DNA from: a virus
Strand: one strand, 5' to 3'
Virus record (IMG/VR): IMGVR_UViG_3300028833_000003
DNA length: 64,000 nucleotides
Below, in pieces: positions 1-49,243 of the stretch. Under the pieces are notes generated by a model. The model was not told the origin of the DNA. It ran no database searches and worked only from the letters and a program-made list of their open reading frames with translations. A program made the translations under genes and the position numbers. Positions within the stretch are counted from its first letter, which is position 1; each line of letters begins with the position of its first letter.

Positions 1-1299
1 TATTGTTGCCGCGCCATTAGCAGGAACAAAAGAACATAATTTAGTAAATAATTTACTGTAATGACCAGTTAAAACATCATAAAATTTTCTATTAGCCCAA
101 AATTTATATGATACTTCTGGTCCGCCGCAAATAGGTGTTATACGATATTCATTATAAATCTATTCTAAAGTACGTGTTTTTGCATATTTGGCTTTAAATT
201 GTAGCCAAGCCTAAATGATATTATCACGTACTTCATCACTTACTCCTTCTGTTGTGACCATAGCAAGCATATCTGGATAAGCTAAGTCTCTCGTTAATTT
301 TTTCCAATCAAACACTTTAGTATTTAATGATTCCCATTTAGAAGTTAAATTTGTAATAAAATTATTAATGCTAGCATACTAATGTGCAGCATTTTTAATT
401 GTATGTAATGTGCCATTTTCTAAATAGTTATAATCAGCATTATCATCTATATTCGTTGTATCAGAAAATTTTGCATATTCTTGTTGATAGTATGCGGATA
501 ATCTAGCATTATCTTCCTATAACCAAGCAATACATTGCTCGCGAGTGTTTTCTGTATAAGCCGGATCGGCTTCAATTGCACGTCCAACTTGCGCGACCAA
601 TATTTGTAATTCTGATAACGTATAATATGGTGCATGATTCTAACTCAAATTATTAACAGCATTAGTTAAAGCAGCATATTCGTGGTGTATGCAATCATAA
701 ATCGTATTCACATTATCAAAAGCGATAAAATTATTCATACGCTATTGAATAATAGCAATTTTTTCTTCACGCATAGTTTCGATTATACGAGTACATTCAT
801 ATGGAGTTATACCCCATACATATTCTTTATCTTGATTCTACTCATAACGATGCTATTTTTTTAATTCAATATCTTCTTCTGCGTTGCCTAAAGCCGCTAA
901 ATCAGCAATATAAACAGGAACACAACCAGTTAATAAGCTATATAAATCTTCAACCTCAAGCGCAGCAACCTAAACGAAATCATCAAAAGGCCATTTAAAA
1001 TTATACGCCGCACTGCTACCTGTCATTAAACGACTTACAATGCGTTTCTAATTGTCCCAATTATTCTATGGAACTAAAACTTGTACCTATTCGCCCGCGA
1101 AAAATGACTATTCTGAGTATGCTTCAAAACGAGTATTTTCATATTCACAAGTGTAAATATTTTTATCCTCTTCCGAACGCGAAATGATAGTACAAGGCGA
1201 ATAAGTTTTATCAAATTTTAAATCACTTAATGCTTTTTTAGTCAATAAATCAACTGCACTTAAAACGCCATTTGCAACACTATCATTAAAATTAGCCAT
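1..1299 (-). CDS. tail structural protein encoded directly downstream of the tape measure gene (possibly distal tail protein); C-terminus runs off the left edge; uses TAG as sense codon
   Basis: ATG 1299 behind AAGGAG; frame open to position 1 (433 codons) with 13 in-frame TAG and no TAA/TGA in AT-rich DNA; position after tape measure. Confidence 0.7.
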
Positions 1300-1382: not shown

Positions 1383-4300
1383 TTATCTATAATTATTAAT
1401 ATATTGTGACGCACGATTATTAAGTTCATCAAACGCCGCAATAATTTCGTTTCTATCAGTTGCATTCGGGAACTCAGCGGAAATATGAACATTCTATTCT
1501 AGCCCGCCTAGACCAGAGAAAATGCTAGCACCATTGGCTGAAACTCCACTACTTGACATAGCGGCAGCCAAACCACCAATAAATCCTAACAAATTTTGAA
1601 CAGCAGATGTATCAATAGAATGTAACAGATCAATCGTATTTAGCAAATTAGGCGTGTCTGCCGCATTAAGCATAAGCTCTGGTTTATTTGGTGTGCCATC
1701 AACCCAAGCAGGTCCAGTATAATCAACCAAACCGCCAGAAGCATACCCACTTAATTTTGAATTATATCTCATTGCAGCAGCCTTTGCCGCTTCAATTTTT
1801 GATTGCCAATCACTTGAAACCTTTTTACTTTTAGTAGATGATACTGTTGTACCGTTAGAACTAGCAACCGTACCATCAGTATAACCAACCATATTATTTT
1901 GTACTGGTACTAAACGATATTGAATAAAACCAGTAGCATTAGGTGTTGCAATGTCTCCTTCGGTACCACCAATCTGCCATAATAATTCTAAATTTTTTGT
2001 ATTTGCTGCTTCAATAGTAGCAAAAATATCTGAAATAACTTGTTTTTGTCTATACCAAGCATCAGTCACTGCATCAACTTTAGCCGCTTCATCGCCCAAT
2101 TCCTCATTTAAAAGACTGACTTGCGATGCAGCTAATGATGTAGTAGAACCAATGATTTCATCAAAATTGGTCATGTCTGCTAACCCAGTACGATAAAGAG
2201 ATGTATCTAAAGCATCACTGAATTCTTTTAATTTAGGTAATAACCAATCAATCTATTCTGCTAAACTCATTGCCATACTATCTTGTAATTCAATAGCAGC
2301 TTGAATAGTAGGATTGATACCTTCTGTTGGGTCTTTAAAAGCACTATAATAAGCATCGCTATATGCATCCATACAAGCTTCATTATTAGTGGTTAAATTA
2401 GCATATGCTTCTTTCATTTGATCGACAAAATATTTATCGTCTTGTTGAGCCATTTCATGTAATTCACGTAATTTTGCTGCTTTTTCTTCTTCATTCAATA
2501 AATCATCAAGAGCAATAGCTTTCGCCTATTCCACATACCATTTGCGCTTTTCTAACATTTGTTCTTCTAATTCCCGCACTCTGTCTAATGATAATTCATT
2601 AATTTCAATTAATACATCATTATATTCCTGCGTTGCTTCATCAACTTTTTCTTGGTCTGCAGTATATTGATACATATAATTACCATTTTCATCTCTTGTT
2701 AATCGTACAGTATCTTTTGCGTTCTATGCATCACGTAACGCTGTCTGTTTTTCTAATAGTTCATACTATTTTTGCATCATATCAACATCATATTGAGTTA
2801 ATTGACCACTTTTAGCTTTTTGATTAATAACATTCTATAGCTCTTCATATTGATTCTTTAAAGCCTTATCCATAGTATCTGCCATCGCTTGTTCAATTTG
2901 TCTATTTAATTTATTAATATTATATAACTAATGAGCTGTATTTAAATATCTATCTTGTACTTCAATGTCACGATCATATTTACCTTGTAAGTAATCTAAT
3001 GTCGTTTCTCCCATCGCCAATGCTCTATCTAATTCAGTGCCCATTTCTTCAACATCGGCTTCCCAACGTTGTCTAGCTAAATCCGCCATACTTGTTAAAT
3101 TTTCATAATAAGTATTTTGTGTATCTTTTAAGCGAGCTAATAAACTATAATAATCTGCCTATTGCTGTGCGTCTAAATTTTCTAGACCATCAGCTTCAAT
3201 AATTTTTTGATCAAATAATTCTTTTTGAGCTAAAACAGTTTCATATACATCTTTATAAATATTTGCCAATGCCTAAGTTTGATTATATTGTTCTGTCAAA
3301 TTTGCTCTTGTTGTTGTAAATGTTTTATGAACTCCTATTAAATCACTAATATCTTTAATAGTCTATAAAGCAGTAATATTCTTATCTAATAAATCAGTAT
3401 TTCTTGATAATTCGTCATCGTATTTAGACCACATATCTTCAAATAATTCCTATATTTCTTGACCTTTATCAAAGATGTCTGACATATCATCATTTAAAGC
3501 TTCCATAATATCCTATGAATGTTCTGCCATAGTTGCACCATCAATTTCGCCTGCTTTAAATGCTTGCTATAATTCATTTAATTTAGTCATTTCTTCATTA
3601 AGTTTAATAAAACTCGCACCATCTAAATTTACTCCATCACTACCAAATAGTGCCTCTGCTATTAAACTTGCTCTTGTGCTAAGATTAGTTAATATATCTT
3701 CGGTACGATCAAGTTGCCCTTCTAATGCATTTAATTCTAAATCTGCTAATTCAATTTTCCATTCGTGCGCAGTTTCTACGGTTTCAGCAGTTTTTTCAGA
3801 AATTTCATGTTGCTATTCAAGAATTTTTTCTTGATATTCTTCTATTTGAGCTAATGAATCTTCATAATCTTCAATGACTTTCAACATACGTTGATAGGCA
3901 TCATCAGGTCCTTCCATCCCGCTTTCTGCTTCATCATCTTTATGTTCATTATACCAATCTATTAATTTTTCCTAAAGAGCTTCCCAATTTTTAATAGTTC
4001 CATCTTCATCAAAATCAAGAGTAATACCAAGCTATGCTGCTAAGCCTTCAACATTTGATCTATCTTTGCTAGCATATGCCGCAGCTTCATTTAATCGTTC
4101 TTGATAATTGTCCATTTGTTTATTTAATTTTTCAATTTCTTCACGCATCAATTTAACTTTAGTTACACCAAATGCCATTTCTTCTTTTTTAGCGACCTAG
4201 CCTAATTTGGAATCATATCGTTTAATTGTTTCATCAACTTCATGGTAGCGTTTAAGATCGGCTTTGGATTTACCTTTCTTCTTCTTTTTGCCTCCACCGC

Positions 4301-7300
4301 CGCCGCCTCCGCCGCCACCACCAGGTGCAGAAGGTGCTCCGGCGCCAGGTCTTGCTCCAGTAGTACCAAAATCTGGTACGGCAAGACTAGTTGTACCTGA
4401 ACCTTGTAATTGACCTTCAGCAGTAGCAGTCATAGAGCCGCCACCTGGCATAGTAACTGTCATTGTTGAAGATGCAGGTACATCAATTTCGTTTTCTCCT
4501 GTAACTGTCTTTAAACTAGGAGGAGGAGGAGCTTGTACAGTATATGTGATTGTGCCATCTTGATTTAATACTGCGGTTATAGCATCTGCATTTTGAATTA
4601 AGTATTCTACAGGTATCTATACAGCCTAGCCTGTTTGTTCGCTTAAAGTTGCACTTAACTAATCTGCTAAACCTTGCATATCAGTTCCCATCATTGCCGC
4701 AGCGCCTTGGGCATTTGTTGCTACATACTAAAAACCATCACCAACTTGCTAAACTGCAAGTCCCATATCATTTAATACTTCATTTGCTTCATCTAAGTTA
4801 TCAAACTAACTAACAAATTCTTCAGCAGTTTGTTGAGTTTTTTCTCCCCACTTTGAAGCTAGACCCATTGTATCCATTAACTATCGCATTTGTTTATTGG
4901 TTAAGTTTAAATCTTTTTGCAATTGTCGTAATGCTTTGCTATCTTCTTTTCCAAGTTTTTCACCAAATTTTAACCCGTTACCAATTTTGTTAAATTCTGC
5001 TAACTGTTCTGTACAATCTTCTATAGATTGACCTGTTTCTTGGAACATCTCATCTAATTGTTTAGTTAAAATTTTTGCTTCTAACTATTCCATTGCTTCA
5101 ACAGAACCATTAGCCCATTGTGAAATTAAATCTTTATTGTCTTTGATAAAATCCATGCCAACTTCTGCATCTTTAAAGAAATTATTAACTATATCTACTA
5201 AATCTTGATAAGCTGCCATTTGTTCTTTAATAGATTTTGTTTGATCATCAATAGTAGCTAAAGACCCATTTTCTTCTCTAGCTTTTTGTAATGCATCTAA
5301 TGCTTCTGTCGCTTTATTATATTCAACAGCTGCTTCAGACATTAATAACTTGTCATCAGCTTCTAAATCTTGCCATTCAAGCATTACTCCTTCATAAGCT
5401 GCAATACTTTCAACATAATTTTCCATTTCTTGTGCTTCAATACCAAGCTATTGCGCATAATTAGATAATAAATCTGTTAATGCTTGTACATCACCATGTA
5501 ATGCCGCAGTCACTTTGTCTCCTGCAAATGCTTCATTAGCTAAATCTGTACCCAATTCTACTTCATCAGTATTAAATAAAATTGGATGTTCTAATAGATA
5601 TTGATCTACAGCTTCTTGTTGTGCTTGCTGAATTGCAGCAGCTCTTTTATTCATATATGCAAGTTCACTTTTTGTAACTGCATTACCATTATCATCTAAA
5701 AGTAATAAATCAGGTTTATTCGGGTTACTTATTGGTTTAGGATTAGTTTTATCAAATTCTGCACCTGCTTGTCTTGCTGCATCTGCTTGTATTCTTGCGA
5801 TTTGGTCCATCTAGGCCTAATTTACTGCAGTATAACCCTTTTCCTAAAATTGCTTTAATTCCTCTGCGCTATTAGCGTAATCCTAGTTTTTAACAGTAAC
5901 TTTTCCAGTCTTTTGATCAATTTCAAAACTACTTGCAGTACCATCTTGTAACATTTTCATTGCTGCCATAATCTGTGCCGCTGCAGCAGCCATAGCGGCG
6001 GCTAACTGCATGGTTGCACTTTCCAATTGCACTAAACCGATAGAAGCAACTGTGGCATCTTCACCAACAATTCCCATGTCCTATAAAGTTTTTAGTACCG
6101 CTGCCTAATCTGCTTCTGACATACCTGCGAGAGTGCCTTTTTCAATCATTTGCTATTGAGCAGTCTATAATAATGTCATTTTTTGCTATTGACTATCTAT
6201 ATATTGCTCACCTTCTTGTCGAGCTTTGTCAGCCATATTAGTTCGTTTGGTTTCTACTTCTGTAAATGCTGCCGCTAAGATTTCAGCCAATTCAGAATCA
6301 GAATGTACATACATTGAGTCTTTTATCAAAGATAATACCGCCTCGAAATCCTCTTGTTTAAGTGTATAACCTTGCGCAGCTTCACTAACATGATAATTAC
6401 CAGTCTAATCTGCAAAAACAAGACCATGACGTTCTAATCCTGCCAAAATTGCTATACTATTTGCGTCTCCGGCTTTAGCTTTATCATTATATTCCCCAAT
6501 TAATTTAGGATTTAATGATTTTCCAATAACATCACGCAATTCACCGGCTAAATATTTATCTACATATTTTCTAACATTTTCATTATATTGATCTTTTGTA
6601 GTATCTAAATATTCACCATTTTCACTATTTAAAAATCTTTGTCGCCCTGATTTATTATAAGTATCAAAATCAAATGGTCTATAATCAACTCTTGCATCAG
6701 GATTGTTTATATGTTCTTTAATTTCTTGTAATGTTTTACCTGCTTCTAATAATGTTTGCACATATGCTGCTAATTCATCAGGACTACCGAACATTGATTC
6801 TAAGATACTTTTTCCTTCTGCTAATCCTGCTCTCATATCAGCAATTGCTTGGAATGTTTGCTCCCATAATTCTAGTACTGCTTGTGCAGTAGCTTGTTCC
6901 TAAGCATATATCGCCTGTAAACCACTTGCCCATACATCTTTAATAGTATTCCATGCTTCTTCAACGGCAAATTCAATTTCCGTTCCGCTATGATTTAAAG
7001 CTTGTTGTACGGCAGCTATAAATTCTTCGTTATGATTATTAATTGCATCTGCTAAATCTGTTGCTCCAACTGTAGCAATTGCAGAATTAACTGCAGCGTC
7101 TATATAAGATTTTTGAGCATCAGACAATTTATCACTTTGAGCATATTCTTTATTACGATAATAATCTTTTTCACGTTCAGCAATTGCTTTTTGCATTTCT
7201 TCATTGAAGTTCTCATTCATTTTTACCAAAGCATCAGCCCGAGCTTGTGCAATATCTTTTGGACGTTTAGAATCTTTTTCTGCCTACGCTTTTAATGCTT

Positions 7301-10300
7301 TTAAAGCTGATTGATATTCATGTTCAAATTCTGCTGTCCATTCTCTTCCAGGCATTTCTTGTGAAACCAATTGTTTTGCTTTTTGTTGCAATTTTTGTTC
7401 TTCATCTTTCCATTTAGCTTCTGCATCATCTTGAACTTTTTGTTCATAAGCCTTCCAAATTTCCTAATCAGTTAATTTATCTTTATTATCTGGATTGGCA
7501 ATATAATTATCTCTAAAAGCTGCGTAATCATATAATGTACTATACTTTTGATGATCCGCATCAGTACCACCTAACAAGCTATCTAAAACATCTGTAATAG
7601 ATGTATCTTCAGAAATTTTTCCAATAGCATTTTGAATTTCATCTAAAATACTTCGTGCAATTTTATCTCCTAAACCATCAACATTTGGCTCCCAACCAGC
7701 AATAGACTATGACAAACCAACTTGTAGACCTTGGATTAAGAATGGAGCCAAAGCCATAGTTAGTTTTGATGGTGATGCAATACCAAGAGCATGAGCAAAT
7801 GCTGCAATAATTTCATTACCAATTGGCGCAAAATACGCTGCCCAATCTACATCTGTATTTTGTAATCCAACAATTAAGCCATCCATTAAATGCATAGCTA
7901 ATGACGCCGTTGCGGAATCAGAAGATTGAGATGCTTCATCTAATGCTCTAAAATAATTATTTAAAACATCAGGTGCCAAATCTTTAAAATCATCTGGAGA
8001 CATGGCTAAAATTTTATTATACATAAGTTGAGCCTTATATTTTTGTTCATTTGACCAAGTATTATGGCTACCTTCAGCATTAAATTCGAACATAGCACTT
8101 TGTATATCTTGTATACTCTATAAATTATTATGTCGCTATCTAAAGTTTGTCACATGCTATTTTTCATTATTAGCAATAAATGGTATATCAATTCCACCTA
8201 AATAAGAATACATTTTATCAAGATCTTCTGCGCCCTTTTGCTATAAATTGCTTTTATCCATCAAAGCTTTAACTTTAACAAAATATTCTTGTCCTTGTAA
8301 CTGTTGTTGAATAGTGTTATTTCCAAGACTCGCATCAGCTTTAACATGATATTCATTTGGTTTATCTTCTGCTCCATCAATTGCTCCCTATAATTCTGCA
8401 GCTAAAGTTACTTCTGTACCATTTGCTAATCTTACTTTAATTTCTTTGCCTTTTCCATCTGCTCCTTGTAATATTTGAGAAATTTGCGATTCAATAATAC
8501 CAACATCTGTTTGAATTTTTAGTTTTCGTGGTTGACCATTTTCATCTGTTTCCATTTCCCATGCGCTTATTTTAGATGCTAAATTAAATTCTTCGCCTTT
8601 ATCATCAACGCAATTAATTTTAATATTATGACCAGTTGCATCAGTTTCATAACTTTTAATCGTTGCCGCAAAATCTTCGTCATCTTTTCGAATTAAAATA
8701 GTTTTAGTGCCTGGAAGCATTAAAGCTGCGACCGTTACCGTAAAACCTAATGTATTACCTGCATTAATTGCAATTTTCTTTTCCTCTGGAACACTATCTA
8801 ATAAAGTAGTATAAGTTACTTCAAAAGTGCCATTTTCGCCATCAAACATAATAGTTTTATGGTCTGTAGTAATTGCTGTATTATATTTTGCAGTATAAGT
8901 ACCAAATTCACCTTGGAAAGTAATAGTTTTATCTTCTCCTGCAATTGCTGTATCATATGTTGCAGTATAGGTACCAAATTCACCTTGGAAAGTAATAGTT
9001 TTATTTTCTGTAGCGGTTGCTTCTTTAACTGCAAAAGTATAAGTGCCACCATCACCTAAAAACGTAATCGTTTTATTCTCATTCATTATAGCTTCTTTTA
9101 CTGTATCTGTATAAGTTCCAAATTCGCCCTAAAATATAATTGTTTTATTGTCATCTAAAGTTGCAGATGTATAAGCCGCCTAATAAGTTCCATCTTTAGC
9201 ATAAAAAACAATATTCTTTTCTCCATCAATCTGTACAGCTTCTAATGAAGAAGTATATTCACTACCTGTTTCACCAACAAATGTAATTATTTTTGAACCA
9301 GGATGACTTTCAATAGCAGCAATTGTATCACTGTATTCTTTATCATCAACAGAAAAAGTTACTTGTCCATCAGGATGTAAATTAAAATTCTCAACTGCCT
9401 AAACTACTTCTTTACCATCAACGGTATAATAAACTTGACCATCTTGATAAAGCCAAGTCTAAATTTCATCTTCATTTTCCATCTCGGCTTCAACTTCAAT
9501 TACACTATGGTCAACTGGAGTTGTATCTAATTCTGTTACTAATCCAACATATTCTTGTTGCCGTTTTTCTAAAGTACTTAATTGCATTAATGCTGCTTCT
9601 GTTGCGGCTACCATGCCAGCCTTAATTTGCTCTTTATCTCCATCAGCATTTTGAATATCTTCAATAATTTCTTTAACTCTTTCAGCTGCAACACCAGCTC
9701 TAATTAAAGATTGTTCTAATTCACCAATTGAAGAAAAAGATAAATTATCTAATGAAGTTAAATTTGATTGAATGAACTAAATCGCACTTTTAGCCGCGTT
9801 AATTTTTTCATCGTCCTAACTAGTTTGACTATCAACTCGAGACTATATTTGTTCCATACGCTAGTCATTTAATGCACGCTCTTGAGCTTCGATTTTTCTC
9901 TACTAAATTTGAACCTGAGTATCATCATATCCTTTTTCATCGCGCATGTTCTATAATTCTTCTAGCTTTTGTTTCATTTGTTCCAATCTATATGTTTCTC
10001 GTTCTAGATCAGACATTCCTAGCCATTCCTCAAATGAGGGAGTATCAGCCTTATTTAAGCCCAATAATAATTGATTCATTGCTAATTCAGTATCTTTCCA
10101 TTTTGTCGGGTCTAATTCTGCACCAGATAACCATTCTAACTATTGCGATTTACCAGACGCAGTTTCAATAAATTTAGTTGCAGTTTGTAACGCCGTAGTA
10201 ATATTAGTATATTCTGCTTCTTCATCACTTAAACTTGTTAATAATCCTCTAAAATCACTATTGTTATTTACTGTACCTTTATAAGATATACCCCAATCAT

Positions 10301-13300
10301 TCATATATGTACGTAAAATATCACTTGCAGAACCTGCAGTAGCATATTTGTCACCAAACATAGCAAGCATAGTATTACGTGTATCTTCGTTGTTTAATAA
10401 TTTTCCATTTTCATCTATGTTTTCTGATAAAAAACGCTAAAAAGTACGCTAATGCTCCCATTGCTATTTAGCCTAATCAACATCTTCTACACCCATTCGT
10501 TCTTGCATAAAAGCATTCTATGAATCTGTAATAATAGTATTTAAATCTACCATTCCATCTTCATATTGTTGCCACCAATTATCATAACCTGTGCTTATTT
10601 GCTCCATTAAAGTCGCCATTTGTGCGGCTTTTTCAGAAGAAGACATTTTATTCCATTCTTGAGTATTAAAAATTTCTCCTAATCCTAATAAATCACTTAC
10701 TATTGGTAGCTATGCCGCAAAACTATCTATATCAAATTCACCAGAATATCTATTACCCCATTGAGCCAATAAGCCTGTTGCAGTTTGTGCTTTTGCTTGT
10801 TGCTATAATAATTGAGGAACTCGTTTGTCCATTAAATCACCATTATTATCTAAAAATGGTGCTATATTAGCCATATAAGACCAATCTTTATCAGTAAAAC
10901 CCCACTGCTCTAATTTTTTCTACGCTTCTTCTTTTGTCATTTTTTTATTACGAGTTGTCATTGCAGTTACAGCAGATTCTTTATTAGCAACCGTTGCATC
11001 TGCCGCAGCTATATCACTTTCTGATACACCGACTAATCCTCTGGCATAAGTAGTTACTAATTGACTAGCTTGTTTTTTAGCTGCTCGAGTAATAGCATCA
11101 TTTTTATTACTATCTATGCCCCAGTCTGCTAATAAACCTTCAACTAAACTCTCCTATACATCAGAACTCCATCCTTCAACATTTTGTTGTTTTAGCCAAT
11201 CCTAGCCTTTTAATTCTCTCATACTCTTAATAGCATTAAGATATGGAGAAATCATTTCAGTGATCATGTAATCAATATCTTCAAATGATTGATCATGTAC
11301 TAAAGCTTCTAACTATGATTTCATTCCAGGGTCTTCAATAGTTTTTGCTGCTTCTTTAATTGCTTGTAGCTAATTATAATAATGTAACAATGAATCTAAA
11401 TCAGATTCAATAACTAAGTCATCGGCAGTTCGTGCCATCCCTGTTCCACCCGCGCGCGCACTACCGCCTAAGAATGATTGAATCAAATTATTTTCTTGAT
11501 CGCCTGTTGCATTACCACTAAGCCAATAATCATATTTTCGACTACCAGCATAATCAATATTAATACCATATTGATTAGCTAACATATCTCTTATATTTGC
11601 ATTCTATAAACTTTTTAATAAACCAGATTGTTTCATATTAGTATTAAATGAACTTAATATGTCATTATAAACAACTCCGGTTTTATTCCCTTCATTATTA
11701 TCTCTATATTTGTCTCCCATATTTTCTTTTGCTATTTTAGTAACCTAATTTTCTAAACCATGTTCTGCGCGTCTAACATCAGATTCTGCAGTTTCAATTT
11801 GTTGTTCACGTGCAGCCTCAATAGATTCTTGAATAGCTGCAGTTAATCCTTGATAATTACCAGTAAGTGCCATAACTGCAGCACCCTAAATGCCTAAACT
11901 AGATGCGATATCAGCTAAAGCACTACTATATTCTTGAACAGATAATGCACCTTCTGCAAACTATTTGTTTAATGAGTCAAAAGCATTACTATTAGTCATT
12001 AATTCTTGATTTGATTGTTGATGTTCTTCTAAAATTTTATTTGTAGTTTCTGCCATTTTAACCATTTCTTGTTCACGTTTTTCTTGCTAATCTTTCATAT
12101 ACGTAAATACACCAGCAATTGCCATACCAGCCGCTTGAATGCCTGCCATCAATGGTCCTTGTGTTGCAAATGTATTAAGTAATGAACCACCTGCACTAAC
12201 AATAGAAGTTACACCTGCTAATGTATCACCACTTTCAAATGACTTCATAATACCTTGCATAGAAGTAAAACCTTGAACTGCAGCCATGGCTCCTTCTGCA
12301 ACTGTTGCCAAACCCTTAGACAATTTTTGAGCTGCAGCTTCACGAGCATTCAATGCTTGCTCTTCTTCATCTTCCATATCAAAGCCTGCAGTAATCTCTT
12401 CTTGGCCTACCTAACGACCATATTCCTAAGCTCTATGAGCAGAATCTTCACCAACAATGCTACGCATTTCCTGATAAGCTTCATCTAAGTCATCATCAAT
12501 TTGATCACGTAAATGCTCTGCAATAACTCTTCCACGATCAGCTTTAGTAGCTTGATTTTGTTCATTAAAACCAGCACTTTCAAGCCAATCATTCATTTCA
12601 TTTTCGTCTTGCGGTAAAAAATCACGTACTGCTTGAGCCATTGGATTATTCTCATCCATCATAACAGACTCAAAACGCTCTGCAGCCGCTGTACTATCTG
12701 TGTCCTCATTAAAAATTTGATCTATCTATTGATTTACTGCACCACGTAAAGCATTTCCTCTAGCTTCTTCTTGTACTCTATTACCTAATCCACGTATCGC
12801 TGTATTTTGTACATTCTTATCATCTGATTTAAAATCTGCTACCATGTCATCAAGATCACTACCACTATAACCCTGATCAGCATAATAATTTAAAGCATTA
12901 ATATAAGCATCATCACGTAATTTATCAGCAGTACCTGTACCTTCTAATTCAACTAAAGAACCAATTGATAATTCTCTACGAGCTTCATCTGTAATATTGG
13001 CTAAATTAGTTTCATGACCTGCCATGGTTTGCTAACGCTAATTTAAATAATCAATATGCTATTGTAAACGCGCAGCTTCTTGTCCACTCATATGCCCTTG
13101 TCGTAATAATAATTCTTGTTTAGCTATCGCACTTTCACTTCTTGCGTCTGCACTTAATAAACGCATTGTATTTGCAGTATTTGCACTTGTATCTGGTGTT
13201 AATTCACTTTCTCGTCTATCTAAAGCGCTATTATATTCCATATCTGCCGATCTACGTAAAGTTGTTAGATTATCAAATAAATTTCGCTATTGAGTGCCTT

Positions 13301-15041
13301 GTGCAAATTTTTGAGCACCATACTAAGAAATTGCTTGCATCCTTCCGCCATAATTATTTGAATTATTTTGCATATAAGCATTAAATTTTCTATAAGTAGG
13401 AATACCACCAATTGGATGCCCTTCTGAGCCTTTTGCTGCTTTCATGTTGCCCCATGCAGTCCGCAACGTACCACCTTTGCCAAAGAAATTTCCAAATGCC
13501 ATGCTAATACCTGTTAATTTATCTAACATCTATGGTTTAAATGCAGTCATCATCATCTAAGAAATTTTTGCTAATATACCAGGGATACCTCCAAGACCAT
13601 TAACTAAACCTCTAACTGCAGATAACGCTGTTGCCAATGCATTATTAAATCCAACAAGGAATTTATCATTAATTAAATCACCGAAAATAGCTTCTTTACT
13701 TGCTTGTACTCTTTGTTTAGATGCTTTAACAGAATCTTCATAAATTTTCTGCATTTTTTCTAAGCTGCCAGCTGAATTTTGAGCATTTTGCAAATCTTTT
13801 TGATACGTATCCCAGTTTTCAAATAATGCCATTAATTGCGTATATTGACGTTTACCAGCAACAACCTGCGCGATAGCAGTTTTTTGCGCACTGCCCATGG
13901 TCTACCATTTATTACCAAGATCAGTAATAACATCGCCCATATCACGCATATTACCAGTAGCATCTAAAACCTATACACCAATAGAATTTAATGAGCTTGA
14001 AACTTTACCTAAATTAACACCGTCTTCTAATGTTTCACCTAATTTTAAGTCACCCATACGTGCTAAAATAGTTTTAAAAGATGTACCAATTGATTCAGCA
14101 CTTTCACGAGTAACAGAAGATACAGTTGCAACAATAGAAGACATTTGTTCCATACCGACACCAACAGTACTAGCAGTCGCGGCAACTTTCTATAAAGCTG
14201 TTGCAATTTCTTCCATGCTAGTAGCAGTAGTAGAACCTAATTTTGCCATTACATCTACATAACCTTCAAGCTAATCACCGCCTGCTTTATAAGAATTCCA
14301 AACGGCGGTTAGCATTTCTGACATTTCCGCAGCATTAGCTTTGAATGCAGTATTTGCAGCCTTTAAAGTAATTTGTGCTTTCTTTTGTACATCTCTATCA
14401 TTATCACCCTATTGATAATAAATTAATGCTGCATCAGCATATGCTTTTGTTGATGTACTTAAACTTTTTGCCATTACATTTGCTTCTTTTGCAAAATTGC
14501 TCATATCAGAAATAGATTTGCCAGTAACAACACGAATATTATTTAATGAAGTATTTAAATTTTCAATATAGCTAACTGCTCCACTCATAGCAGACTATAA
14601 GCCATGAACCATTTGACTAGCTGCTTGCCATTTCACAGTATTCATTAAAGTTGTGCCAAACTATGCAATAAGACCAGTCGCTTTTTGCGCGGGAATAGTT
14701 GCCTAAGTTAGAACAGAAGACAACTATGAAATTGCCTATTGTCCAGTTGTACCGGCGCGCTAGAAACTGGCAATTAACGTTTGAACATTTGTATTAGCAC
14801 TCGCCAAGCTATTACTTAATGCACTAAAATTAATTTGCCCAGTATTAACATTAACTGCCTATTGTAATGCCTACTATAATTTTGCTGCTTGCTACGCGGC
14901 ATCTGCCATATTTGTATCAATTTTTAAATTTAATCTACTGTTTTGCTGCAATCTTTGTAATGAAGAACTTAATTGTTCAACCTACCGCTATGCAGCACTG
15001 GCATCAGCCTAAATATTAATTTTATACTATACACCAGCCAC
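1383..15041 (-). CDS. giant tail tape measure protein, 4,552 aa, read with TAG as sense codon
   Basis: 19 ORF-track fragments (1494..2174 through 13971..14153) share one frame. I walked every gap codon by codon and found only TAG, never TAA/TGA. GTG 15041 lies 8 nt after AAAGGAG; an in-frame TAA sits upstream at 15063; the first non-TAG stop is TAA 1383. N-terminal part (SIGTSFKTILARMGDLKLGE, AQVVAGKRQYTQLMALFENW) looks like a TP901-type tape measure core. Sits after the major tail protein and chaperone. Confidence 0.85.
8800..9400 (-). repeat. tandem 72-nt (24-aa) beta-type repeat array inside the tape measure gene, at least 8 units
   Basis: Units K-T-I-T-F-x-G-E-F-G-T-Y-T recur with exact 72-nt phase (x codons at 9131, 9059, 8987, 8915, 8843; diverged units further upstream at 9203, 9275, 9347). 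Confidence 0.8.
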
Positions 15042-15070
15042 GTTGCAAACTCCTTTCTCTCTTTATATAA

Positions 15071-15104
15071 TAAAAAAATCGTCTAATATTATGTATTAGA
15101 CGAT
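15071..15104 (-). terminator. intrinsic terminator/attenuator between chaperone gene and tape measure start
   Basis: Perfect 11-bp stem ATCGTCTAATA/TATTAGACGAT (15078-15104), 5-nt loop, followed on the minus strand by U7 (A-run 15072-15078 on plus); lies between TAA 15116 and RBS/GTG 15041. Confidence 0.6.
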
Positions 15105-15115
15105 TTCATTTTTTC

Positions 15116-15640
15116 TTAACCTATTTTATCTAAAATTTCTTTAACCGTAGTTAATTTTTCTGGGTCTTCAATTTTTTCAATTGTTTTATCAATATCATCT
15201 TTTGCAATCGCATAATCTGCATTAATCATATTAATCATACCAGCTAATGAATTATTATAAGAAACAATATTATTCGCACATTTCTAAGCAGCGTCCCATA
15301 ATAATTCATGTTCTCTTGTGGGAATTGCTTTAATTACACTATCATAAACATGATTAAGTTCTAATGCATCAAATACTTTACTAATATTTTCTAATTGCTT
15401 ATCAGTAATATTAATATTAGTATAATAACGAATTAATAAAACTTTAAACCAAATTTCTAATCGCATTGGGTTATAAGCACCAGTAGAATCAATAGTATAT
15501 GATAATAATTCACTAATCAACTGTGCTTTATCATCTACTGATAAATACTAAATTACATTAATTTCTGTATCTCCTATTTTTATAATCACAGGTTCAACTG
15601 ATTTAATGGGTGTTACTTTTGAAAAAGCAACTTTCGCCAT
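15116..15640 (-). CDS. tail assembly chaperone-like protein (174 aa), contains TAG sense codons
   Basis: ATG 15640 behind AAGGAG; in-frame TAG at 15548 and 15284; ends TAA 15116; assignment by position immediately upstream of tape measure. Confidence 0.65.
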
Positions 15641-15702
15641 AATAACATCTCCTTTATCTCAATACTTATTTATAATATACCATATTTTTTTTATTTTGTC
15701 AA

Positions 15703-16944
15703 TTATGAATCTGCGATAGACGCTAAAGTAGATTTTGAAATTTCAGTTATCCAATCTCCTTTTTGTTTATGTATCATTTCATTAACTTGAGTATAGATTT
15801 TGCTAATAATTTCTGCTGTACTAATAACATAAATGTTTGCACTACCAGGATCATTATATACTAAATAATTAGCACCTAAATCACCAATACCATCTTTCTT
15901 TAATTCATTTCTAATAATTTCGTCTACATAAGTTTGACCTCGACCTGTTAATTCATAAATAACACGTAACTACTATAAAGCTAATCGTACATCTTCACGA
16001 TGAGTATTACGAGCATAATAAAAAATACTAATTGAAACACCATAAGGAAATCGAGTATTAAGCAGATCTAAATAAACACGTTTACTTTTTGTCTAACCAA
16101 AATGAACTGAACGTACTCTTGACTAAATGGCATTTGTAATACCTGTCGCGGCGTCTTTAATATATGATAAACTATTATAGTTTTTTGCAGTAAAATAAGC
16201 TTTATGCAATAATTTAGCAATATGCATTAATTTAGATCCGGCGGTTGCAGTAATTGTTAATTCAACTGCATGTCCATTCACATCGACTTTACCATTAACA
16301 GTAGTTGTTACAAAATCATCGGCAGATGTTCGTTCATCAAACAGGCGTTTAATTTTATCTGCTTCCTCTTGTACTGCAGCATTAGCAAGATCACTTATTG
16401 CTCCATCAATCATACTACGCAATGGAGTATGCGCACCTTTCGTACTTACTGAATGCCCCATAACATTTACTTTTGCGGCACCAAAAATAACATCATTTAA
16501 ATTGGCATTTTTTGCTCCTCCAAACTACTAAGTCGCCATACTGATAGCCGCCAATTCGCCTTCTAAAACATCACCTTGCGTCCAACCTTTAGACTTCAAA
16601 CCAGTGCGAGTAAAAAAACCTCTGCCACTAGCGCCAATAACAGAACCCGCTTCTTGTAAAATCTAACTTAAAGCTTGTTGCTAAATACCACTTTTTAATG
16701 ATATATTCTCAAAACCCTTATTACCTTTATTAGATAAATTTTTTAAATCACGAAAAAAATCTTGCAATTCTCTTGCTTCAGCAGCACTACCTGCTCCTTC
16801 AACTGCTCCGTGACTATTACCAAGACCATTCATAATATTATTATACTCGCTCATTAATTCATCACGCATCGCAGTTAATGCTTGATAAGGATCTAATCCT
16901 TCATATGCTTTATATCGTTCACCTAAGTGTAATAATCTTGGCAT
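15703..16944 (-). CDS. hypothetical tail-associated structural protein (413 aa), contains TAG sense codons
   Basis: ATG 16944; ORF-track fragments 16681..16944 and 16123..16461 are in one frame; gaps contain only TAG; ends TAA 15703. Confidence 0.7.
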
Positions 16945-16962
16945 TTATGTCACCCGCTTAAT

Positions 16963-16997
16963 AAAAAAAATGGGGACGAGCTTTTTTGCTCGTCCCC
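16963..16997 (-). terminator. intrinsic terminator after major tail protein gene
   Basis: Stem GGGGACGAGC/GCTCGTCCCC (16972-16997), T6 loop, followed on minus strand by U8 (A8 16963-16970 on plus). Confidence 0.7.
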
Positions 16998-17016
16998 ATT
17001 TGTATTATATCAATAA

Positions 17017-18099
17017 TTATTCACCAAAACGCTTTGGAGGTTCCTTACCAGAATCTTCATAAATGTCGCCTGGGAATTTAGTATCACCCTCAACTGCGCC
17101 ACGAGTTGAACCATCATAAAGTGCAGTATCTTCAACAATCTGAAGAGCAGCAATTACTTTCTTGGTCTTATCAAACTTAGTATAGTCTGGGAAAGCATCC
17201 ATTGTGAAAGTAAAGGTAGAAGGATCACCAGTAGGTGCCATTGTGAAGGTAAAGTTAGACTGAACCTTGCAGTTAGGAATGATAAATTCAGCAGGATAGT
17301 CTTCACCAGTTGCTTCATCACGGAACAAAGTAGAAGCTTCAAGATAATAAGAACCACCGAACTTACCAGCTTCAATATCAATCTGCTTTACATACTGAGT
17401 GCTCTTTACATAATAGTCAATATAAAGAACAGAACCTGGATCATCGCCCATGCCATTAACGTAGTCATATACTTCCTGTGGATTCTTAGCATCCTTATAA
17501 GCATCTACGTTTGCTTGGAACTCAGTGCCAATAGGAGCATGAGCATCCATGATCTTACCAGCGACCAATAATTCATTATGAGCAGCATTATAAGCAGCAG
17601 CCCAATGAGCAAAGATTTCTTCAACGTTCATTTCCTTAGCAATATCATCACGTTGAATTTCCATAGGAATACGATTGGTATTAATAGAACCATCAGCATT
17701 CTTCAACATAATATACATGCTACCACCCTTGGCTGGCTCATGAGCAAGAGTAATCTTACCTGCTTTAATCTGAACCTGCTCAGTAGTATGTACATAAATA
17801 GGATGATCTTCATCAGCATCCATGAAACCAGCACCAGAAAGAATTGAGAAGCTTTCTGGACTAATCAAAGCATCTTCCATTGTAAATGTTACAGTACGGT
17901 CGCCTTCCCAAGCTACCAAGCGAGGATTACCTTTACCGCCCTGAGCATAAACAGTTGTGCTCTGGCCTTCCAAAGAAGAAGTCTTCAATGTTTCAAAATA
18001 TAACACAGGCATATCCTTGTCAAGATACAACTTACCGAAGAAACCTGCTGCCTTACGACGAAGTACAACATCGCAAATTTCGCGTACGCCAAATCTCAT
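17017..18099 (-). CDS. major tail (tube) protein, 360 aa, TAG-free
   Basis: ATG 18099 8 nt after AGGAGG (the ORF-track start 18138 is upstream of the RBS); GC-richer codon usage; flanked by a strong terminator; upstream of chaperone and tape measure; product by position and beta-rich sequence. Confidence 0.7.
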   Translation of the reverse strand: MRFGVREICDVVLRRKAAGFFGKLYLDKDMPVLYFETLKTSSLEGQSTTVYAQGGKGNPRLVAWEGDRTVTFTMEDALISPESFSILSGAGFMDADEDHPIYVHTTEQVQIKAGKITLAHEPAKGGSMYIMLKNADGSINTNRIPMEIQRDDIAKEMNVEEIFAHWAAAYNAAHNELLVAGKIMDAHAPIGTEFQANVDAYKDAKNPQEVYDYVNGMGDDPGSVLYIDYYVKSTQYVKQIDIEAGKFGGSYYLEASTLFRDEATGEDYPAEFIIPNCKVQSNFTFTMAPTGDPSTFTFTMDAFPDYTKFDKTKKVIAALQIVEDTALYDGSTRGAVEGDTKFPGDIYEDSGKEPPKRFGE

Positions 18100-18116
18100 A
18101 TGCGTTTCCTCCTTAA

Positions 18117-18875
18117 TTAATGTAAACTTTTCATCCAATCGTCTGGTTTACTGTCGGGTTTTCCGCCAGCCAAACGTGATCTTATATCTAAATCCCACCC
18201 GACATATAAGCCGTATCTCTCAATCAAATCATAGAGCTGATAGACCGTAAGATTAAGGCAATCATCCAGACTCATGGATTCCAGAGCAATGGTGAGAATA
18301 GAAACATATCTAGATAAAACACCATCATTACCACCCGAGCCTCTACGCCGAGCAGCTTCACTACGACCCTTCATTAATTTCGCCGCAATTGCAGCAGCTT
18401 TATTACCTTTTGGATTATAATTTGAGTTCTAACCACCAGTCGCATTATTTAATCCACACACTTCTGTTAGAATTGCTTGCACAGTATCAAAATTATTTTC
18501 ATCAAGAGTAAAAGAATGTTTTGTCGTAGCGTTATTAAAAAAAACTCCCATAGGTAAAAACTATGCAGTATATCCTGGGAAAAACAACATAAACAGTTGT
18601 TCGATGGTATTTTTCCGCTTCCCCGAATCCTAAATATTCGGGTTAGCTACTAATGTCATAAATATCTAAAAATTATTAAGGGCGGCTAAACTAGAAGCGC
18701 CCTATCCTGTCTAAGATGCTAAAAGCACTTTTCGATTAAAACACACTAACTATAAGGCTAAAAAATATTCTTCTTCACCAATTAATGCAATTTCCGCGAT
18801 TTTAGGCTAGTGGATTGTAGTCTATAACTCAACTACTGGGATATTAGTCCCAGCCATTAAAGCTAATGAATTCAT
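18117..18875 (-). CDS. hypothetical neck/tail-completion protein (252 aa), contains TAG sense codons
   Basis: ATG 18875 overlaps the TGA of the preceding gene (ATGA coupling); alternative ATG 18857; frame has only TAG interruptions; ends TAA 18117. Confidence 0.65.
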
Positions 18876-19405
18876 AATAATGGGTTCCGCTAATCTTCTT
18901 CTCCGTGAATAGCTTCATAAGTTAAACATAAACCCATCAACTAATCATTAAGTAAAAGATTGCGCCCAGTTAAGAATTGAGTTTCCCCAATTCCAGTTAA
19001 TTTTTTCTTATTGAAAAGACTATCAATTTCACCAGCAATCTTATAAGGACGTAACTAAAAATTGCCTAAATTCCAATGATCAGGATGACAAAGAATGTCA
19101 AATTCAATAATACAATCTCGATACACTGGATTCTTTTTATTTGGCTAAAAATTATCCATTGAAATTAATACGTAATTAGGACACTCAGTAGAAACTTCTA
19201 GCTAAGGAACTATACGTATCTACTTATGAATCATAGAATATTTTTGTTCTTGTGTTAAATCATTTGCTTTTAAACAATCTTTTTCAGTATAATAAAGTAA
19301 TTTCATTAAACGTTGATCTTCCATCATTTTTTGAATAATCAACGCCAAATCTTTATCGACCGCCAAGAAACTTGATTTAGGAAAATAATCTTGCCCAACA
19401 ATCAT
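18872..19405 (-). CDS. hypothetical head-tail joining/neck protein (177 aa), contains TAG sense codons
   Basis: ATG 19405 behind AAGGAGGAG; fragment 19220..19405 continues in frame through TAGs to TGA 18872. Confidence 0.7.
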
Positions 19406-19422
19406 ATTAACTCCTCCTTTAA

Positions 19423-22974: not shown

Positions 22975-22994
22975 TGTCAATCTCTCCTTTCCTA

Positions 22995-31082: not shown

Positions 31083-31107
31083 CCTATCAAACTCCTTTCA
31101 TAGCTAC

Positions 31108-31136
31108 ATTATAGCAAAAATTTTTTGTAAAGTCAA
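31108..31136 (-). promoter_or_regulatory. sigma-A type promoter of the leftward late operon
   Basis: On the minus strand TTGACT-17 nt-TATAAT, about 25 nt upstream of the RBS of 30012..31082; divergent from the plus-strand promoter at 31145. Confidence 0.7.
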
Positions 31137-31185
31137 GTCCAGTATTGACAGAACAAAAAAAATATGTTAAAATAATATAAAGGAG

Positions 31186-31467: not shown

Positions 31468-31589
31468 GGAATGCTTTTTCTATTGTTTTCCCAAAAATAT
31501 GGGGTGGTAAGAGGTTCCAGGCAAAAAAAATTTTTCACTTTAAAACCAATTAATTCCTGAAACATACGCCCCCCATTTCATTCTCACGC

Positions 31590-49175: not shown

Positions 49176-49243
49176 TGGTAGATGTTTTACCCAAGTATGG
49201 TAGATTTTTTACCCATAAGTATGGTAGATTTTTTACCCAATCG
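49176..49243 (+). repeat. three tandem ~23-bp iterons GGTAGAT(N)TTTTACCCA(N)AGTAT, with a fourth copy at 49887-49915
   Basis: Units start at 49176, 49199, 49222; the related copy TTTTTTTACCCAAGTATGGTAGAT lies upstream of the 49233..49838 gene, so the gene is bracketed. Confidence 0.75.

Follow-up and report, generated by a model that had tools for sequence, protein, structure and literature searches.

A TAG-recoded gene for a 4,552-residue tail tape measure protein in a phage related to phAss-1

The window, that is, the whole 64-kb stretch of viral DNA analysed here, carries a virion gene block in the order terminase, portal, capsid, connector genes, tail tube, small conserved gene, tape measure protein (TMP) and conserved downstream gene. 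The features around and within the TMP gene, in the direction of transcription, are as follows.

17017..18138, minus strand: tail tube protein gene (phrog_2729, E=3e-58; 0 TAG)
15703..16944, minus strand: gene for a 413-aa protein, between the tube and TMP genes (8 TAG)
15116..15640, minus strand: gene for a 174-aa protein (phrog_30570, function unknown; weak match to PF27287, YomO)
15050..15055, minus strand: ribosome-binding site AAGGAG, 8 nt upstream of the GTG start
1383..15041, minus strand: TMP coding sequence (TAG=Gln, GTG start, TAA stop at 1383-1385, family matches)
13482..15041, minus strand: conserved N-terminal block, aa 1-520, over which the giant homologues are 45-53% identical
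13563-14570, minus strand: TIGR01760 match, aa 158-493, within the N-terminal block
13860-14486, minus strand: PF10145 match, aa 186-394, within the N-terminal block
12087..12329, minus strand: Gly/Ala-rich hydrophobic hairpin resembling a membrane segment, aa 905-985 (hydropathy peak at aa 962-982)
8292..9464, minus strand: beta-rich repeat region, aa 1860-2250 (repeat analysis)
7632..7910, minus strand: conserved mid-TMP block with an ALGIASPSK motif, aa 2378-2470 (TMP families phrog_5493 and phrog_4372)
6522..6980, minus strand: conserved, putatively helical block (aa 2688-2840) bearing the motif W-x2-[TA]F-x2-I...R-x2-L-x-x-G (LELWEQTFQAIADMRAGLAEG)
4242..4529, minus strand: Pro/Gly-rich linker ending in G11-K5GKSK...RYHE (poly-G/K at 4275-4322)
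1929..4259, minus strand: conserved, putatively helical C-terminal module, aa 3595-4371 (homologue alignments)
1386..1805, minus strand: C-terminal end domain (aa 4413-4552), carrying an ISAEFPN motif and, at 1692-1736, the invariant motif GGLVDYTGPAWVDGT
1..1299, minus strand: gene downstream of TMP, cut by the window start (433+ aa, 13 TAG)

Once TAG is read as Gln, the minus-strand frame 15041..1383 is uninterrupted over 4,552 codons, giving a gene of 13,659 nt including the stop codon and a product of 4,552 aa, which accounts for 21.3% of the window. The in-frame stops comprise 103 TAG, no TGA and a single, terminal TAA (1385..1383), compared to 177 and 552 TAA and TGA codons in the other two minus-strand frames of the same span; at the lower of these two rates, the probability of 4,552 codons without TAA or TGA is about 1e-78. 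The stop-to-stop frame extends over 15062..1383 and the first start codon within it is the GTG at 15041, which we favour over the ATG at 14909 chosen in the public gene call because the homologues align from residue 4. The single 13.66-kb gene for a 4,552-aa protein, spanning 21% of the window, that was proposed in the first-pass annotation is thus borne out by a continuous frame with a GTG start preceded by a ribosome-binding site and a terminal TAA.

The N-terminus, described earlier as a classical tape measure core, scores well above the curated cut-offs of both TIGR01760 (121.7 bits against 28.8, E=3.5e-35) and PF10145 (94.5 bits against 33.2, E=1e-26), so that a TP901-type core is strongly supported in this part of the predicted protein; ten TMP PHROGs match it as well. 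A single profile, phrog_34405 (2,675 positions), is matched at its start by the N-terminus and at its end by the last ~100 residues, with the C-terminal end domain falling on positions 2581-2673 of 2675; this domain also has matches to 1,703 library proteins at E<=1e-3. The TMPs of phAss-1 (3,149 aa) and of two IMG/VR relatives, L004 (2,872 aa) and L003 (at least 3,837 aa), are collinear with the protein from end to end, and its N- and C-terminus each align with those of eight public proteins that run without interruption for 3,957-5,731 aa. These comparisons suggest, with a probability of roughly 0.92, that 15041..1383 is one gene encoding the tail TMP of a ~169-kb siphovirus-type phage. It had also been considered that the C-terminal part could consist of unrelated genes fused to a TMP; the match of the extreme C-terminus to the same TMP family as the N-terminus argues against such a fusion. 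A related possibility is that the long frame is illusory, consisting of adjacent genes with functional TAG stops, or including some TAGs that terminate, such that the first gene alone encodes a TMP. Under the standard code, the region indeed splits into ORFs of at most 232 aa, and the window and the adjoining 20.5 kb yielded no suppressor tRNA, but the 13.6 kb of frame free of TAA and TGA, the matches of the two termini to opposite ends of a single family, the uninterrupted homologues that span both ends and the TAG codons facing conserved Gln residues render this explanation highly improbable, and the present data already contradict it.

The TAG codons are scattered over the full length of the TMP gene (longest run without TAG, 253 codons) and account for 103 of its 351 Gln codons, with the highest density in the first 150 codons. 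Because a TAG occurs every 44 codons on average, the first one at codon 5, the standard-code products would be meaningless peptides. In all five homologues, the residue facing the TAG at aa 211 is an invariant Gln, and opposite the other N-terminal TAGs the most frequent homologue residue is Gln as well; when TAG is read as sense, the terminase, the portal and the TMP match their own families over the full length. TAG is limited to the minus-strand late genes (0-103 per gene between 1 and 31.1 kb), and the plus-strand ORFs that do not overlap these contain none. Judging by this codon distribution and the alignments, the late genes of the phage are written in code 15, with TAG reassigned to Gln. 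No gene for a suppressor tRNA(CTA) was detected among the 8 tRNAs of the window and the 22 of the adjoining 20.5 kb (contig positions 1-20,467; genome of ~169 kb); some recoded relatives likewise lack tRNA-Sup(CTA) genes (PMC10607447). Given the 103 TAGs, beginning at codon 5, full-length TMP would be impossible to produce until TAG is almost completely reassigned: the full-length yield is 0.36 at a per-TAG decoding efficiency of 0.99 (0.99^103) and 0.005 at 0.95 (0.95^103). The presence of 103 recoded stops in one essential gene thus constrains late TAG reassignment to above 99% per codon for useful yields. The gene is also a clean, extreme example of code-15 phage mis-annotation, in which the standard code turns a ruler gene into dozens of meaningless ORFs.

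The DNA recurs in independent public assemblies: over positions 12995-33744 of the window, identity is 100% with an ENA contig (168,974 bp) and with four more contigs from other samples (two JGI, two Logan), and a C-terminal TMP fragment is present on a JGI contig (168,960 bp). In the public annotation of the identical contig, the TMP is called as one 4,508-aa product with PF10145. We also considered that the long frame might be an assembly artefact of a chimeric or mis-joined contig, for example through collapse or expansion of a repeat region, given that the gene contains a tandem repeat with a 72-nt unit at 8849-9077 (copies 76-85% identical) and that short-read assemblers can mis-size such sequences. 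This seems extremely unlikely in view of the five identical public contigs, the C-terminal fragment on the 168,960-bp contig and the collinearity with homologues that continues on either side of the repeat block; furthermore, miscounted 24-aa units would shift the length of the TMP by less than 2%. One public genome copy holds the TMP only in fragments, e.g. the 226-aa P0001.

In the first-pass annotation, the TMP gene follows those for the tail tube and the chaperone and precedes the next tail gene. The tube assignment holds, with PF27173 (YomU_Tube, from the precomputed annotation of the identical public contig) in addition to phrog_2729, and with 72% identity to the tube protein of L003, 39% to that of Enterococcus phage VRE9_2 and 28% to a virion protein of phage 949; the chaperone and the next tail gene are placed by conserved position only. 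The 174-aa gene, which is separated from the TMP gene by 75 nt and has orthologues directly upstream of TMP in L003 and L004, is a candidate tail assembly chaperone by virtue of this position. The stretch from 15703 to 15041 contains no ORF of at least 60 aa that overlaps in another frame and would form a programmed -1 frameshift pair (G/GT-like). Such pairs are common, albeit not universal, upstream of TMP genes, so TP901-type membership is not excluded. Family searches gave no match for the 413-aa gene (15703..16944) and no assignment for the downstream gene (1..1299), the N-terminal ~100 aa of which are conserved right after TMP in L004, L024, L025 and L026.

Among the conserved blocks of the TMP, the mid-protein block (aa 2378-2470) aligns with L003, P0007 and P0018, and the W-x2-[TA]F-x2-I block is present in one copy here and in two copies in several longer homologues. 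The Gly/Lys tract that had been noticed at 4.3 kb is recovered as the Gly11/Lys-rich stretch at 4275-4322. This poly-G/K-RYHE hallmark lies 979 aa from the C-terminus of the TMP, and the corresponding distance in 19 long homologues is 918-1,236 aa (918-1,069 aa in 17 of the 19). The C-terminal module shows 27-33% identity over 640-1,476 aa to phAss-1, L003, L004, L024 and the eight giant homologues. As judged from these alignments, the protein has a conserved core at its N-terminus, followed by a long middle part that varies and by a ~980-aa C-terminal module of roughly constant length, with the length differences among relatives carried mostly by the variable middle.

The beta repeats reported at 8.8-9.4 kb are present as seven clean 24-aa units (KTITFQGEFGTYTATYDTAIAGED-like) at aa 1917-2085 (8787-9293). 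A single-sequence AlphaFold2 model of aa 1972-2217 is all-beta at low confidence (pLDDT 55.8) and gave no fold match, and the repeat region has no homologue at E<=1e-3. The block is absent from most TMP homologues; P0007 also carries a tandem beta-repeat block, with a period of 33 aa compared to 24 aa here. The block of 24-aa repeats, putatively beta-hairpins, is, by this comparison, lineage-specific.

The Ala/Gly-rich stretches pointed out earlier are present and hydrophobic. Hydropathy peaks of the TMP lie at aa 962-982, 1041-1059, 3013-3031 and 4484-4502; hydrophobic stretches equivalent to the hairpin at aa 905-985, judged by eye, occur in P0007, P0008 and P0013. Ala, Leu, Glu and Gln are abundant in the TMP and Pro makes up 1.4%, and AlphaFold2 modelled aa 4264-4515 as mostly helical at low confidence (pLDDT 44.3); Chou-Fasman profiles of the TMP were uninformative. 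The accessory enzymes that had been proposed (lysozyme, peptidase, transglycosylase) did not materialize in a domain and HMM search of the TAG=Gln translation: a Pfam scan of the whole TMP at E<=0.1 yielded PF10145 alone, together with three sub-threshold matches at chance level, and no lytic domain (lysozyme, transglycosylase or M23 peptidase), and a PDB sequence search gave no match at E<=0.1. No D[FYWLIVM]D[GA]D string of the DFDGD type characteristic of the virion RNA polymerase motif occurs anywhere in the TMP; three DxDxD strings are found at aa 213 (in the core), 849 (in an acidic run) and 3676 (a position not conserved in homologues). A TMP-fused RNA polymerase like that in gp96 of Thermus phage P23-45 was rejected on the grounds that there is no DFDGD motif and the protein begins directly with the TMP core.

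The nearest described phage is phAss-1 of the proposed genus Phassvirus (OQ749652, BK046881, BK025033; PMC10607447), which is filed under "Caudoviricetes code 15 clade". Like here, its late genes are recoded from TAG to Gln and its TMP is fragmented in the standard code, by 110 TAGs compared to 103; both genomes are large, the portals are 40% identical, and the TMPs show 31% identity over the N-terminal 500 aa and 23% over the C-terminal ~1,000 aa, to the last residues. However, the Phassvirus TMPs are shorter (3,149-3,209 aa vs 4,552 aa) and lack the tandem beta-repeat block, their ~1,590-aa middle has no detectable similarity to the ~3,080-aa middle here, and Phassvirus genomes carry tRNA-Sup(CTA) genes, none of which were seen here in the window and the adjoining 20.5 kb. 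The best PHROG match at both TMP termini is to the TMPs of Enterococcus phages EF1, EF5, H1 and VRE9_1-4 (phrog_34405). The EF1/VRE9 group shares the virion PHROG run 4088, 31155, 6123, 4051, 2729, 30570 and TMP, with a portal 31% identical to the one here, but uses the standard code, has a TMP 1.7 times shorter (2,673 aa in VRE9_2) and differs in the order of the small genes between tube and TMP. The TMP of Lactococcus phage 949 contains a TP901-type core with ~25% identity over aa 120-496, and the 949 group consists of siphoviruses of a Firmicute with a very long tail and a genome above 110 kb; the 949 TMP is, however, shorter and encoded in the standard code, and beyond the core it is only distantly similar. 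The neighbouring genes carry Pfam families that take their names from SPbeta proteins (YomU_Tube, YomW, YonB, YonD_N and YonG_N as well as weak YomV and YomO), and both the TMP and the portal have matches in Bacillus phages. YomI, the TMP of SPbeta, has roughly half the length of the TMP here and contains lytic domains that the Pfam scan did not find in the latter. Collectively, these sequence relationships indicate kinship of this TAG-to-Gln phage to phAss-1, to the Enterococcus EF1/VRE9 phages and to Lactococcus phage 949; its virion module resembles that of SPbeta.

The eight giant homologues, from public catalogues, match the TMP from end to end (P0085, 5,731 aa; P0013, 4,770; P0116, 4,757; P0007, 4,574; P0008, 4,496; P0034, 4,487; P0018, 4,419; P0014, 3,957); for these, no description was found in the searchable literature. 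They are 45-53% identical to the TMP here over the N-terminal ~500 aa and 28-33% over the C-terminal 700-1,476 aa, and share mid-protein motifs with it, several having the W..F..I block twice; the poly-G/K-RYH hallmark lies at a similar C-terminal distance, with the pattern unmatched in P0034 and P0116, whereas the variable middles are not alignable. The same size class includes gp96 of Thermus phages P23-45 and P74-26 (5,002 aa; tail of 800 nm to nearly 1 µm; PMC10034513), with which no sequence relationship was found. Unlike the TMP here, gp96 contains a metallopeptidase and, at its N-terminus, a two-barrel RNA polymerase (DFDGD), and these phages infect a Gram-negative thermophile and use the standard code.

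Thus, TMPs of ~5,000 aa and sub-micrometre tails are already on record (PMC10034513; bioRxiv 10.1101/2022.12.01.518664), the TMP of P23-45 with 5,002 aa corresponding to a tail of 800 nm (bioRxiv 10.1101/2022.12.01.518664). Among the 150 best-scoring representatives with the C-terminal motif, 8 are as long as the TMP here or longer, up to 6,239 aa. The placement of this protein at the extreme of tape measure sizes was therefore overstated: it belongs to the upper tail of the distribution, but P23-45 and at least 8 of these 150 representatives equal or exceed it. The TMP is real and very long, but the family of giant rulers is already well populated, and some members are longer. It adds a data point to a length spectrum that extends from 2.4 to more than 5.7 kaa within one homologous family, and leaves the present understanding of tape measure function unchanged. 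In Lactococcus phage 949, a tail of 500 nm (PMC3888941) and a TMP of 3,276 aa give 0.153 nm/aa. At 0.15-0.153 nm per residue, the expected tail would measure ~0.62-0.70 µm, although this calibration may not apply to the ~400 aa of beta-rich repeats; a length of ~0.7 µm can reasonably be expected by analogy. For the non-thermophilic, SPbeta/phAss-1-like lineage, this amounts to a predicted tail of ~0.65 µm.

The way in which tape measure proteins act is established for lambda gpH, TP901-1 and T5 pb2. By analogy, a few TMP copies would be kept soluble by the small upstream chaperone-like protein, the conserved C-terminal domain would anchor in the tail-tip initiator complex, and tube subunits (gene 18138-17017) would polymerise around the extended, presumably mostly helical TMP up to its N-terminus. 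Polymerisation would stop there, and therefore the length of the chain would set that of the tail. During infection, the TMP would be ejected before the DNA, and its hydrophobic Gly/Ala-rich segments are candidates for insertion into the membrane.

Alternatively, part of the chain might measure the tail while the beta block or the ~980-aa C-terminal module are packed or cleaved effectors delivered into the host envelope or cell, in which case the tail would be clearly shorter than 0.68 µm. There is precedent for an enzyme fused to a TMP in P23-45 gp96, where the N-terminal ~1,200 residues are an RNA polymerase (bioRxiv 10.1101/2022.12.01.518664), and both the all-beta model of the repeat block, missing from most homologues, and the near-constant length of the C-terminal module behind a conserved low-complexity hallmark (918-1,236 aa in 19 long homologues) are compatible with this scenario. 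Nevertheless, we consider it unlikely, given that no enzymatic domain was found in the TMP (Pfam at E<=0.1; PDB sequences), that D[FY]DGD is missing and none of the three DxDxD strings is conserved, that the tail of phage 949 is fully explained by the whole TMP at 0.153 nm/aa (PMC3888941), and that the C-terminal module seems helical and charged, as befits a ruler.

Within the interpretation of the protein as a tape measure, a somewhat more doubtful proposal is that it is a two-part device, with an expandable ruler (aa 1 to ~3,570) and a constant ~980-aa module connected by the Gly-run/Lys-run/RYHE joint, coupled to a TAG-dependent late timer. The ruler part may lengthen by gain of modules and by tandem repeats, represented here by the 24-aa array with its recent 72-nt duplication, and the ~980-aa module may be conserved across the whole giant-TMP family. 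The Gly-run/Lys-run/RYHE element has mixed codons, which argues for selection at the protein level, and could be a site of processing or a hinge, from which the C-terminal module would be freed to act as an envelope-crossing conduit. With 103 TAGs, most dense in the first 150 codons, TMP may be the most suppression-dependent gene of the phage; if so, it could serve as a late-stage timer of tail assembly.

From 1 to ~30 kb, the window shows negative GC skew, which places the genes of that part on the minus strand. When the standard code is applied, the interval 1383-15041 contains only short ORFs on either strand (232 aa at most). With TAG read as Gln (genetic code 15), the minus-strand frame from 15041 is a single gene that encodes a tape measure protein (TMP). 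This frame includes 103 TAG codons, no TGA and one TAA, the terminal stop at 1385-1383; the two other minus-strand frames over the same interval carry 177 and 552 TAA and TGA codons and, at the lower of these rates, the probability of 4,552 codons free of TAA and TGA is ~1e-78. The stop-to-stop frame spans 15062-1383, and its first start codon is the GTG at 15041 (minus strand), with AAGGAG 8 nt before it; the product consists of 4,552 aa and takes up 21.3% of the window, as proposed in the first-pass annotation.

The window is 100% identical to the ENA contig ERZ27257202:k141_292341 (168,974 bp), where the gene is already called as one product, of 4,508 aa, starting from our Met45 (ATG 14909). 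Judging from the sequence, the GTG at 15041 is to be preferred as the start because homologues align from residue 4 and the ribosome-binding site is strong. In the JGI copy of the genome (168,960 bp), the gene is represented only by standard-code fragments, such as the 226-aa protein P0001.

The N-terminus had been taken for a classical TMP core, and it indeed belongs to the TP901 type, matching PF10145 (aa 186-394; 94.5 bits, cut-off 33.2) and TIGR01760 (aa 158-493; 121.7 bits, cut-off 28.8) above the curated cut-offs. The N-terminal ~500 aa also match ten PHROG families with a tape measure annotation. Among these, phrog_34405 (2,675 positions) matches best and aligns at both termini, with aa 34-496 corresponding to positions 39-513 and aa 4453-4549 to positions 2581-2673, so that the frame begins and ends as a single known TMP family does. 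Two further TMP PHROGs match a mid-protein block (...ALGIASPSK...).

The possibility that the C-terminal two thirds represent unrelated fused genes is refuted by eight end-to-end homologues from public catalogues (P0085, of 5,731 aa, P0013, P0116, P0007, P0008, P0034, P0018 and P0014), in which identity is 45-53% for the first ~500 aa and 28-33% for the last 700-1,476 aa. Thus, the single-TMP interpretation stands.

The gene is embedded in the following neighborhood:

28828-27092, minus strand, large terminase
26717-25116, minus strand, portal
between the portal and capsid genes, minus strand, scaffold-like protein
22980-21919, minus strand, capsid protein
between the capsid and tail tube genes, minus strand, connector-type proteins
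18138-17017, minus strand, tail tube
after the tail tube, minus strand, a 413-aa gene, then a 174-aa gene, then the TMP gene
downstream of the TMP gene, minus strand, a gene cut by the window start

Precomputed Pfam annotation of the ENA contig assigns the neighbors to YomU_Tube, YomW, YonB, YonD_N and YonG_N, with weak matches to YomV and YomO (all names from Bacillus SPbeta); a literature search for YomU and YomI returned unrelated papers only. The first-pass annotation placed the TMP gene after the tail tube and a chaperone and before the next tail gene. The upstream tail tube is confirmed; the 174-aa gene, which directly precedes the TMP gene in the IMG/VR relatives L003 and L004 as well, fits a candidate tail chaperone by position alone, and no G/GT-type overlapping frame was seen upstream of the TMP gene. 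The downstream gene is conserved in adjacency, its N-terminal ~100 aa following the TMP in four relatives, and a search for a family match to it found none. A metagenome scan for sequence past the window start recovered only relatives with 33-34% identity.

The TAG codons are evenly spread along the TMP gene, the longest run without TAG being 253 codons, and account for 103 of the 351 Gln codons, next to 230 CAA and 18 CAG. The TAG at aa 211 aligns with a position at which five homologues invariably have Gln and, at the other N-terminal TAGs, Gln is the most common residue opposite. Once TAG is read through, the minus-strand ORFs between 1 and 31.1 kb all turn into long, contiguous frames; the plus-strand ORFs that do not overlap minus-strand genes contain no TAG. 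The nearest described phage, phAss-1, is placed by NCBI in the "Caudoviricetes code 15 clade", and its authors translated TAG as Gln and detected tRNA-Sup(CTA) genes (PMC10607447). In crAss-like gut phages, the use of code 15 has been demonstrated by metaproteomics, in the account given in PMC9523058, and the published pattern is that recoding is confined to late genes (bioRxiv 10.1101/2021.08.26.457843). Within a known recoded clade, the TMP is a new member of a known family, and a very long one.

The genome carries a tRNA array, in two parts:

61459-63571 of the window, 8 tRNA genes
11393-19825 of the adjoining contig-end stretch (L022), 22 tRNA genes up to the contig end

Gln(CTG), Ile(TAT) and four Leu isoacceptors are among the tRNAs encoded; no tRNA with a CTA anticodon is present among these 8 and 22 genes, the search having covered the window and the adjoining end of the contig, all but ~98 kb of the genome. 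At 99% decoding per TAG, the full-length yield would be 0.99^103 = 0.36, and decoding must exceed 99% per codon for a useful yield across all 103 TAGs. The first 150 codons of the TMP gene (14592-15041) hold 14 of the 103 TAGs, so that TAG makes up 54% of the Gln codons there compared to 27% elsewhere in the gene (Fisher p=0.007); no such 5' enrichment occurs in the other recoded genes. Four genes of the recoded late block are free of TAG:

17017-18138, minus strand, tail tube
21919-22980, minus strand, capsid protein (YonB family)
22995-23744, minus strand, 249-aa gene adjoining the capsid gene
23766-25103, minus strand, scaffold-like YonD_N protein

Presumably, these are the virion proteins of highest copy number, whereas the low-copy TMP has 103 TAGs, which suggests selection against TAG where the demand on translation is highest. 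In three JGI metagenome contigs (L024, L025 and L026), in-frame TAGs are found in the TMP C-terminus and in downstream tail genes, for example, 20 in a 1,749-aa ORF of L026, and therefore TAG recoding extends to more distant members of the TMP lineage. Near 31 kb (~31100-31500), both the coding strand and the base composition change, from the minus-strand late block (GC 0.31-0.41, negative skew) to plus-strand standard-code genes from ~32 kb (GC 0.40-0.48, positive skew). A low-GC island with negative skew at 46-50 kb holds a minus-strand ORF (49233-49931) with 8 TAGs.

From the N-terminus to the C-terminus, the TMP is organized as follows:

aa 1-520, conserved core
after the core, variable sequence, helical in appearance, including a hydrophobic hairpin rich in Gly and Ala at aa ~905-985
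aa ~1860-2250, beta-rich region with seven clean 24-aa units at aa 1917-2085
aa ~2378-2470, SPSK block
aa 2726, W-x2-[TA]F-x2-I...R...L..G block, one copy here and two in five longer homologues
aa 3010-3031, Ala-rich hydrophobic helix
aa 3574-3601, G11-K5...RYHE, the end of a Pro/Gly linker
after this linker, conserved C-terminal module
C-terminus, end domain with an invariant GGLVDYTGPAWVDGT motif

The beta repeats (region 8.3-9.5 kb), the Gly11-Lys tract (4275-4322) and the Ala/Gly-rich stretches, which are hydrophobic, are all present as first described. The suggested lytic accessory functions did not materialize: a Pfam scan of the TAG=Gln translation detected no lysozyme, transglycosylase or peptidase domain in the TMP, and the whole protein gave no match in a sequence search of the PDB. 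Chou-Fasman profiles were uninformative. Large internal duplications as the origin of the extra length were rejected, since the only significant self-match of the protein lies within the beta repeats. The beta-rich region contains a 72-nt DNA repeat with 76-85% identity, which indicates recent duplication. Among the other homologues examined, a tandem beta block was found in P0007 only, with a 33-aa period, so the block is a lineage-specific insertion. A database search with this region alone found no homologue at E<=1e-3, and a low-confidence single-sequence AlphaFold2 model (pLDDT 55.8) gave no Foldseek match against PDB better than E=0.63.

The Gly/Lys/RYH hallmark at 4275-4322, in which a run of Gly precedes a Lys-rich stretch and ERYH, lies 979 aa from the C-terminus here and 918-1,236 aa from it in 19 long homologues. 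This near-constant distance implies that the C-terminal module is nearly fixed in length and that the size differences arise upstream. The tract uses mixed codons (GGT/GGC/GGA and AAA/AAG) and has no homopolymer longer than 5 nt, which rules out transcriptional or ribosomal slippage; together with conservation, the mixed synonymous codons show that the hallmark is maintained at the protein level, where it may serve as a hinge, a processing site or a contact with the tube lumen.

A HMMER pass with the TAG-free C-terminal 252 aa (AlphaFold2 pLDDT 44.3 with a 9-sequence alignment) against 1.84 billion representatives retrieved 1,703 proteins at E<=1e-3. Among the best 150 of these, 62 have 2,000 aa or more, 45 have 3,000 aa or more and 13 have 4,000 aa or more; eight reach at least 4,552 aa, the longest having 6,239 aa. 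The placement at the extreme of tape measure sizes is thus overstated, and the protein is not the longest, being exceeded by the TMPs of the cultured phages P23-45 and P74-26 (PMC10034513) and by the uncultured P0085 (5,731 aa). A megablast search of the gene against GenBank phages gave no match. The closer relatives compare as follows:

phAss-1 TMP, 3,149 aa, 110 TAGs, matches aa 4-503 and aa 3586-4547, up to its own last residue
L004 TMP, 2,872 aa, matches at the N-terminus, in a block near aa 816-1088 and in the C-terminal module
L003 TMP, at least 3,837 aa (runs off the fetched DNA), six collinear blocks up to our aa 4083

Given this collinearity, the L003 TMP is probably ~4,300 aa long.

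By analogy with characterized TMPs, the C-terminal domain would anchor the TMP at the tail-tip initiator, with tube subunits polymerizing along the chain up to the N-terminus. Two phages provide calibrations: Lactococcus phage 949, with a TMP of 3,276 aa and a 500-nm tail (PMC3888941), gives 0.153 nm/aa, and P23-45, with a TMP of 5,002 aa and a tail given as 800 nm in bioRxiv 10.1101/2022.12.01.518664, gives 0.16 nm/aa. On these two calibrations, the tail would measure 683-728 nm if every residue counts, or ~620-665 nm if ~400 beta-rich residues add little.

Unlike P23-45 gp96, which is described as carrying an RNA polymerase DFDGD motif (bioRxiv 10.1101/2022.12.01.518664), the TMP analyzed here lacks this motif, and a fused RNA polymerase of that type was rejected. 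For four giant proteins encoded outside the window (P0051, P0134, P0055 and P0078; 5,198-6,239 aa), similarity to it is limited to the TMP core and the C-terminal GGLVDYTGPAWVDGT motif. All four are extended at the N-terminus by ~1.8-2.5 kaa, and in each extension a DFDGD/DEDGD motif occurs near aa 900-1,130. By sequence, these extensions look like the TMP-fused virion RNA polymerase, which is not known to have been described outside Thermus phage P23-45 and related phages. If this holds for the four giants, TMP-RNA polymerase fusions occur more widely than reported.
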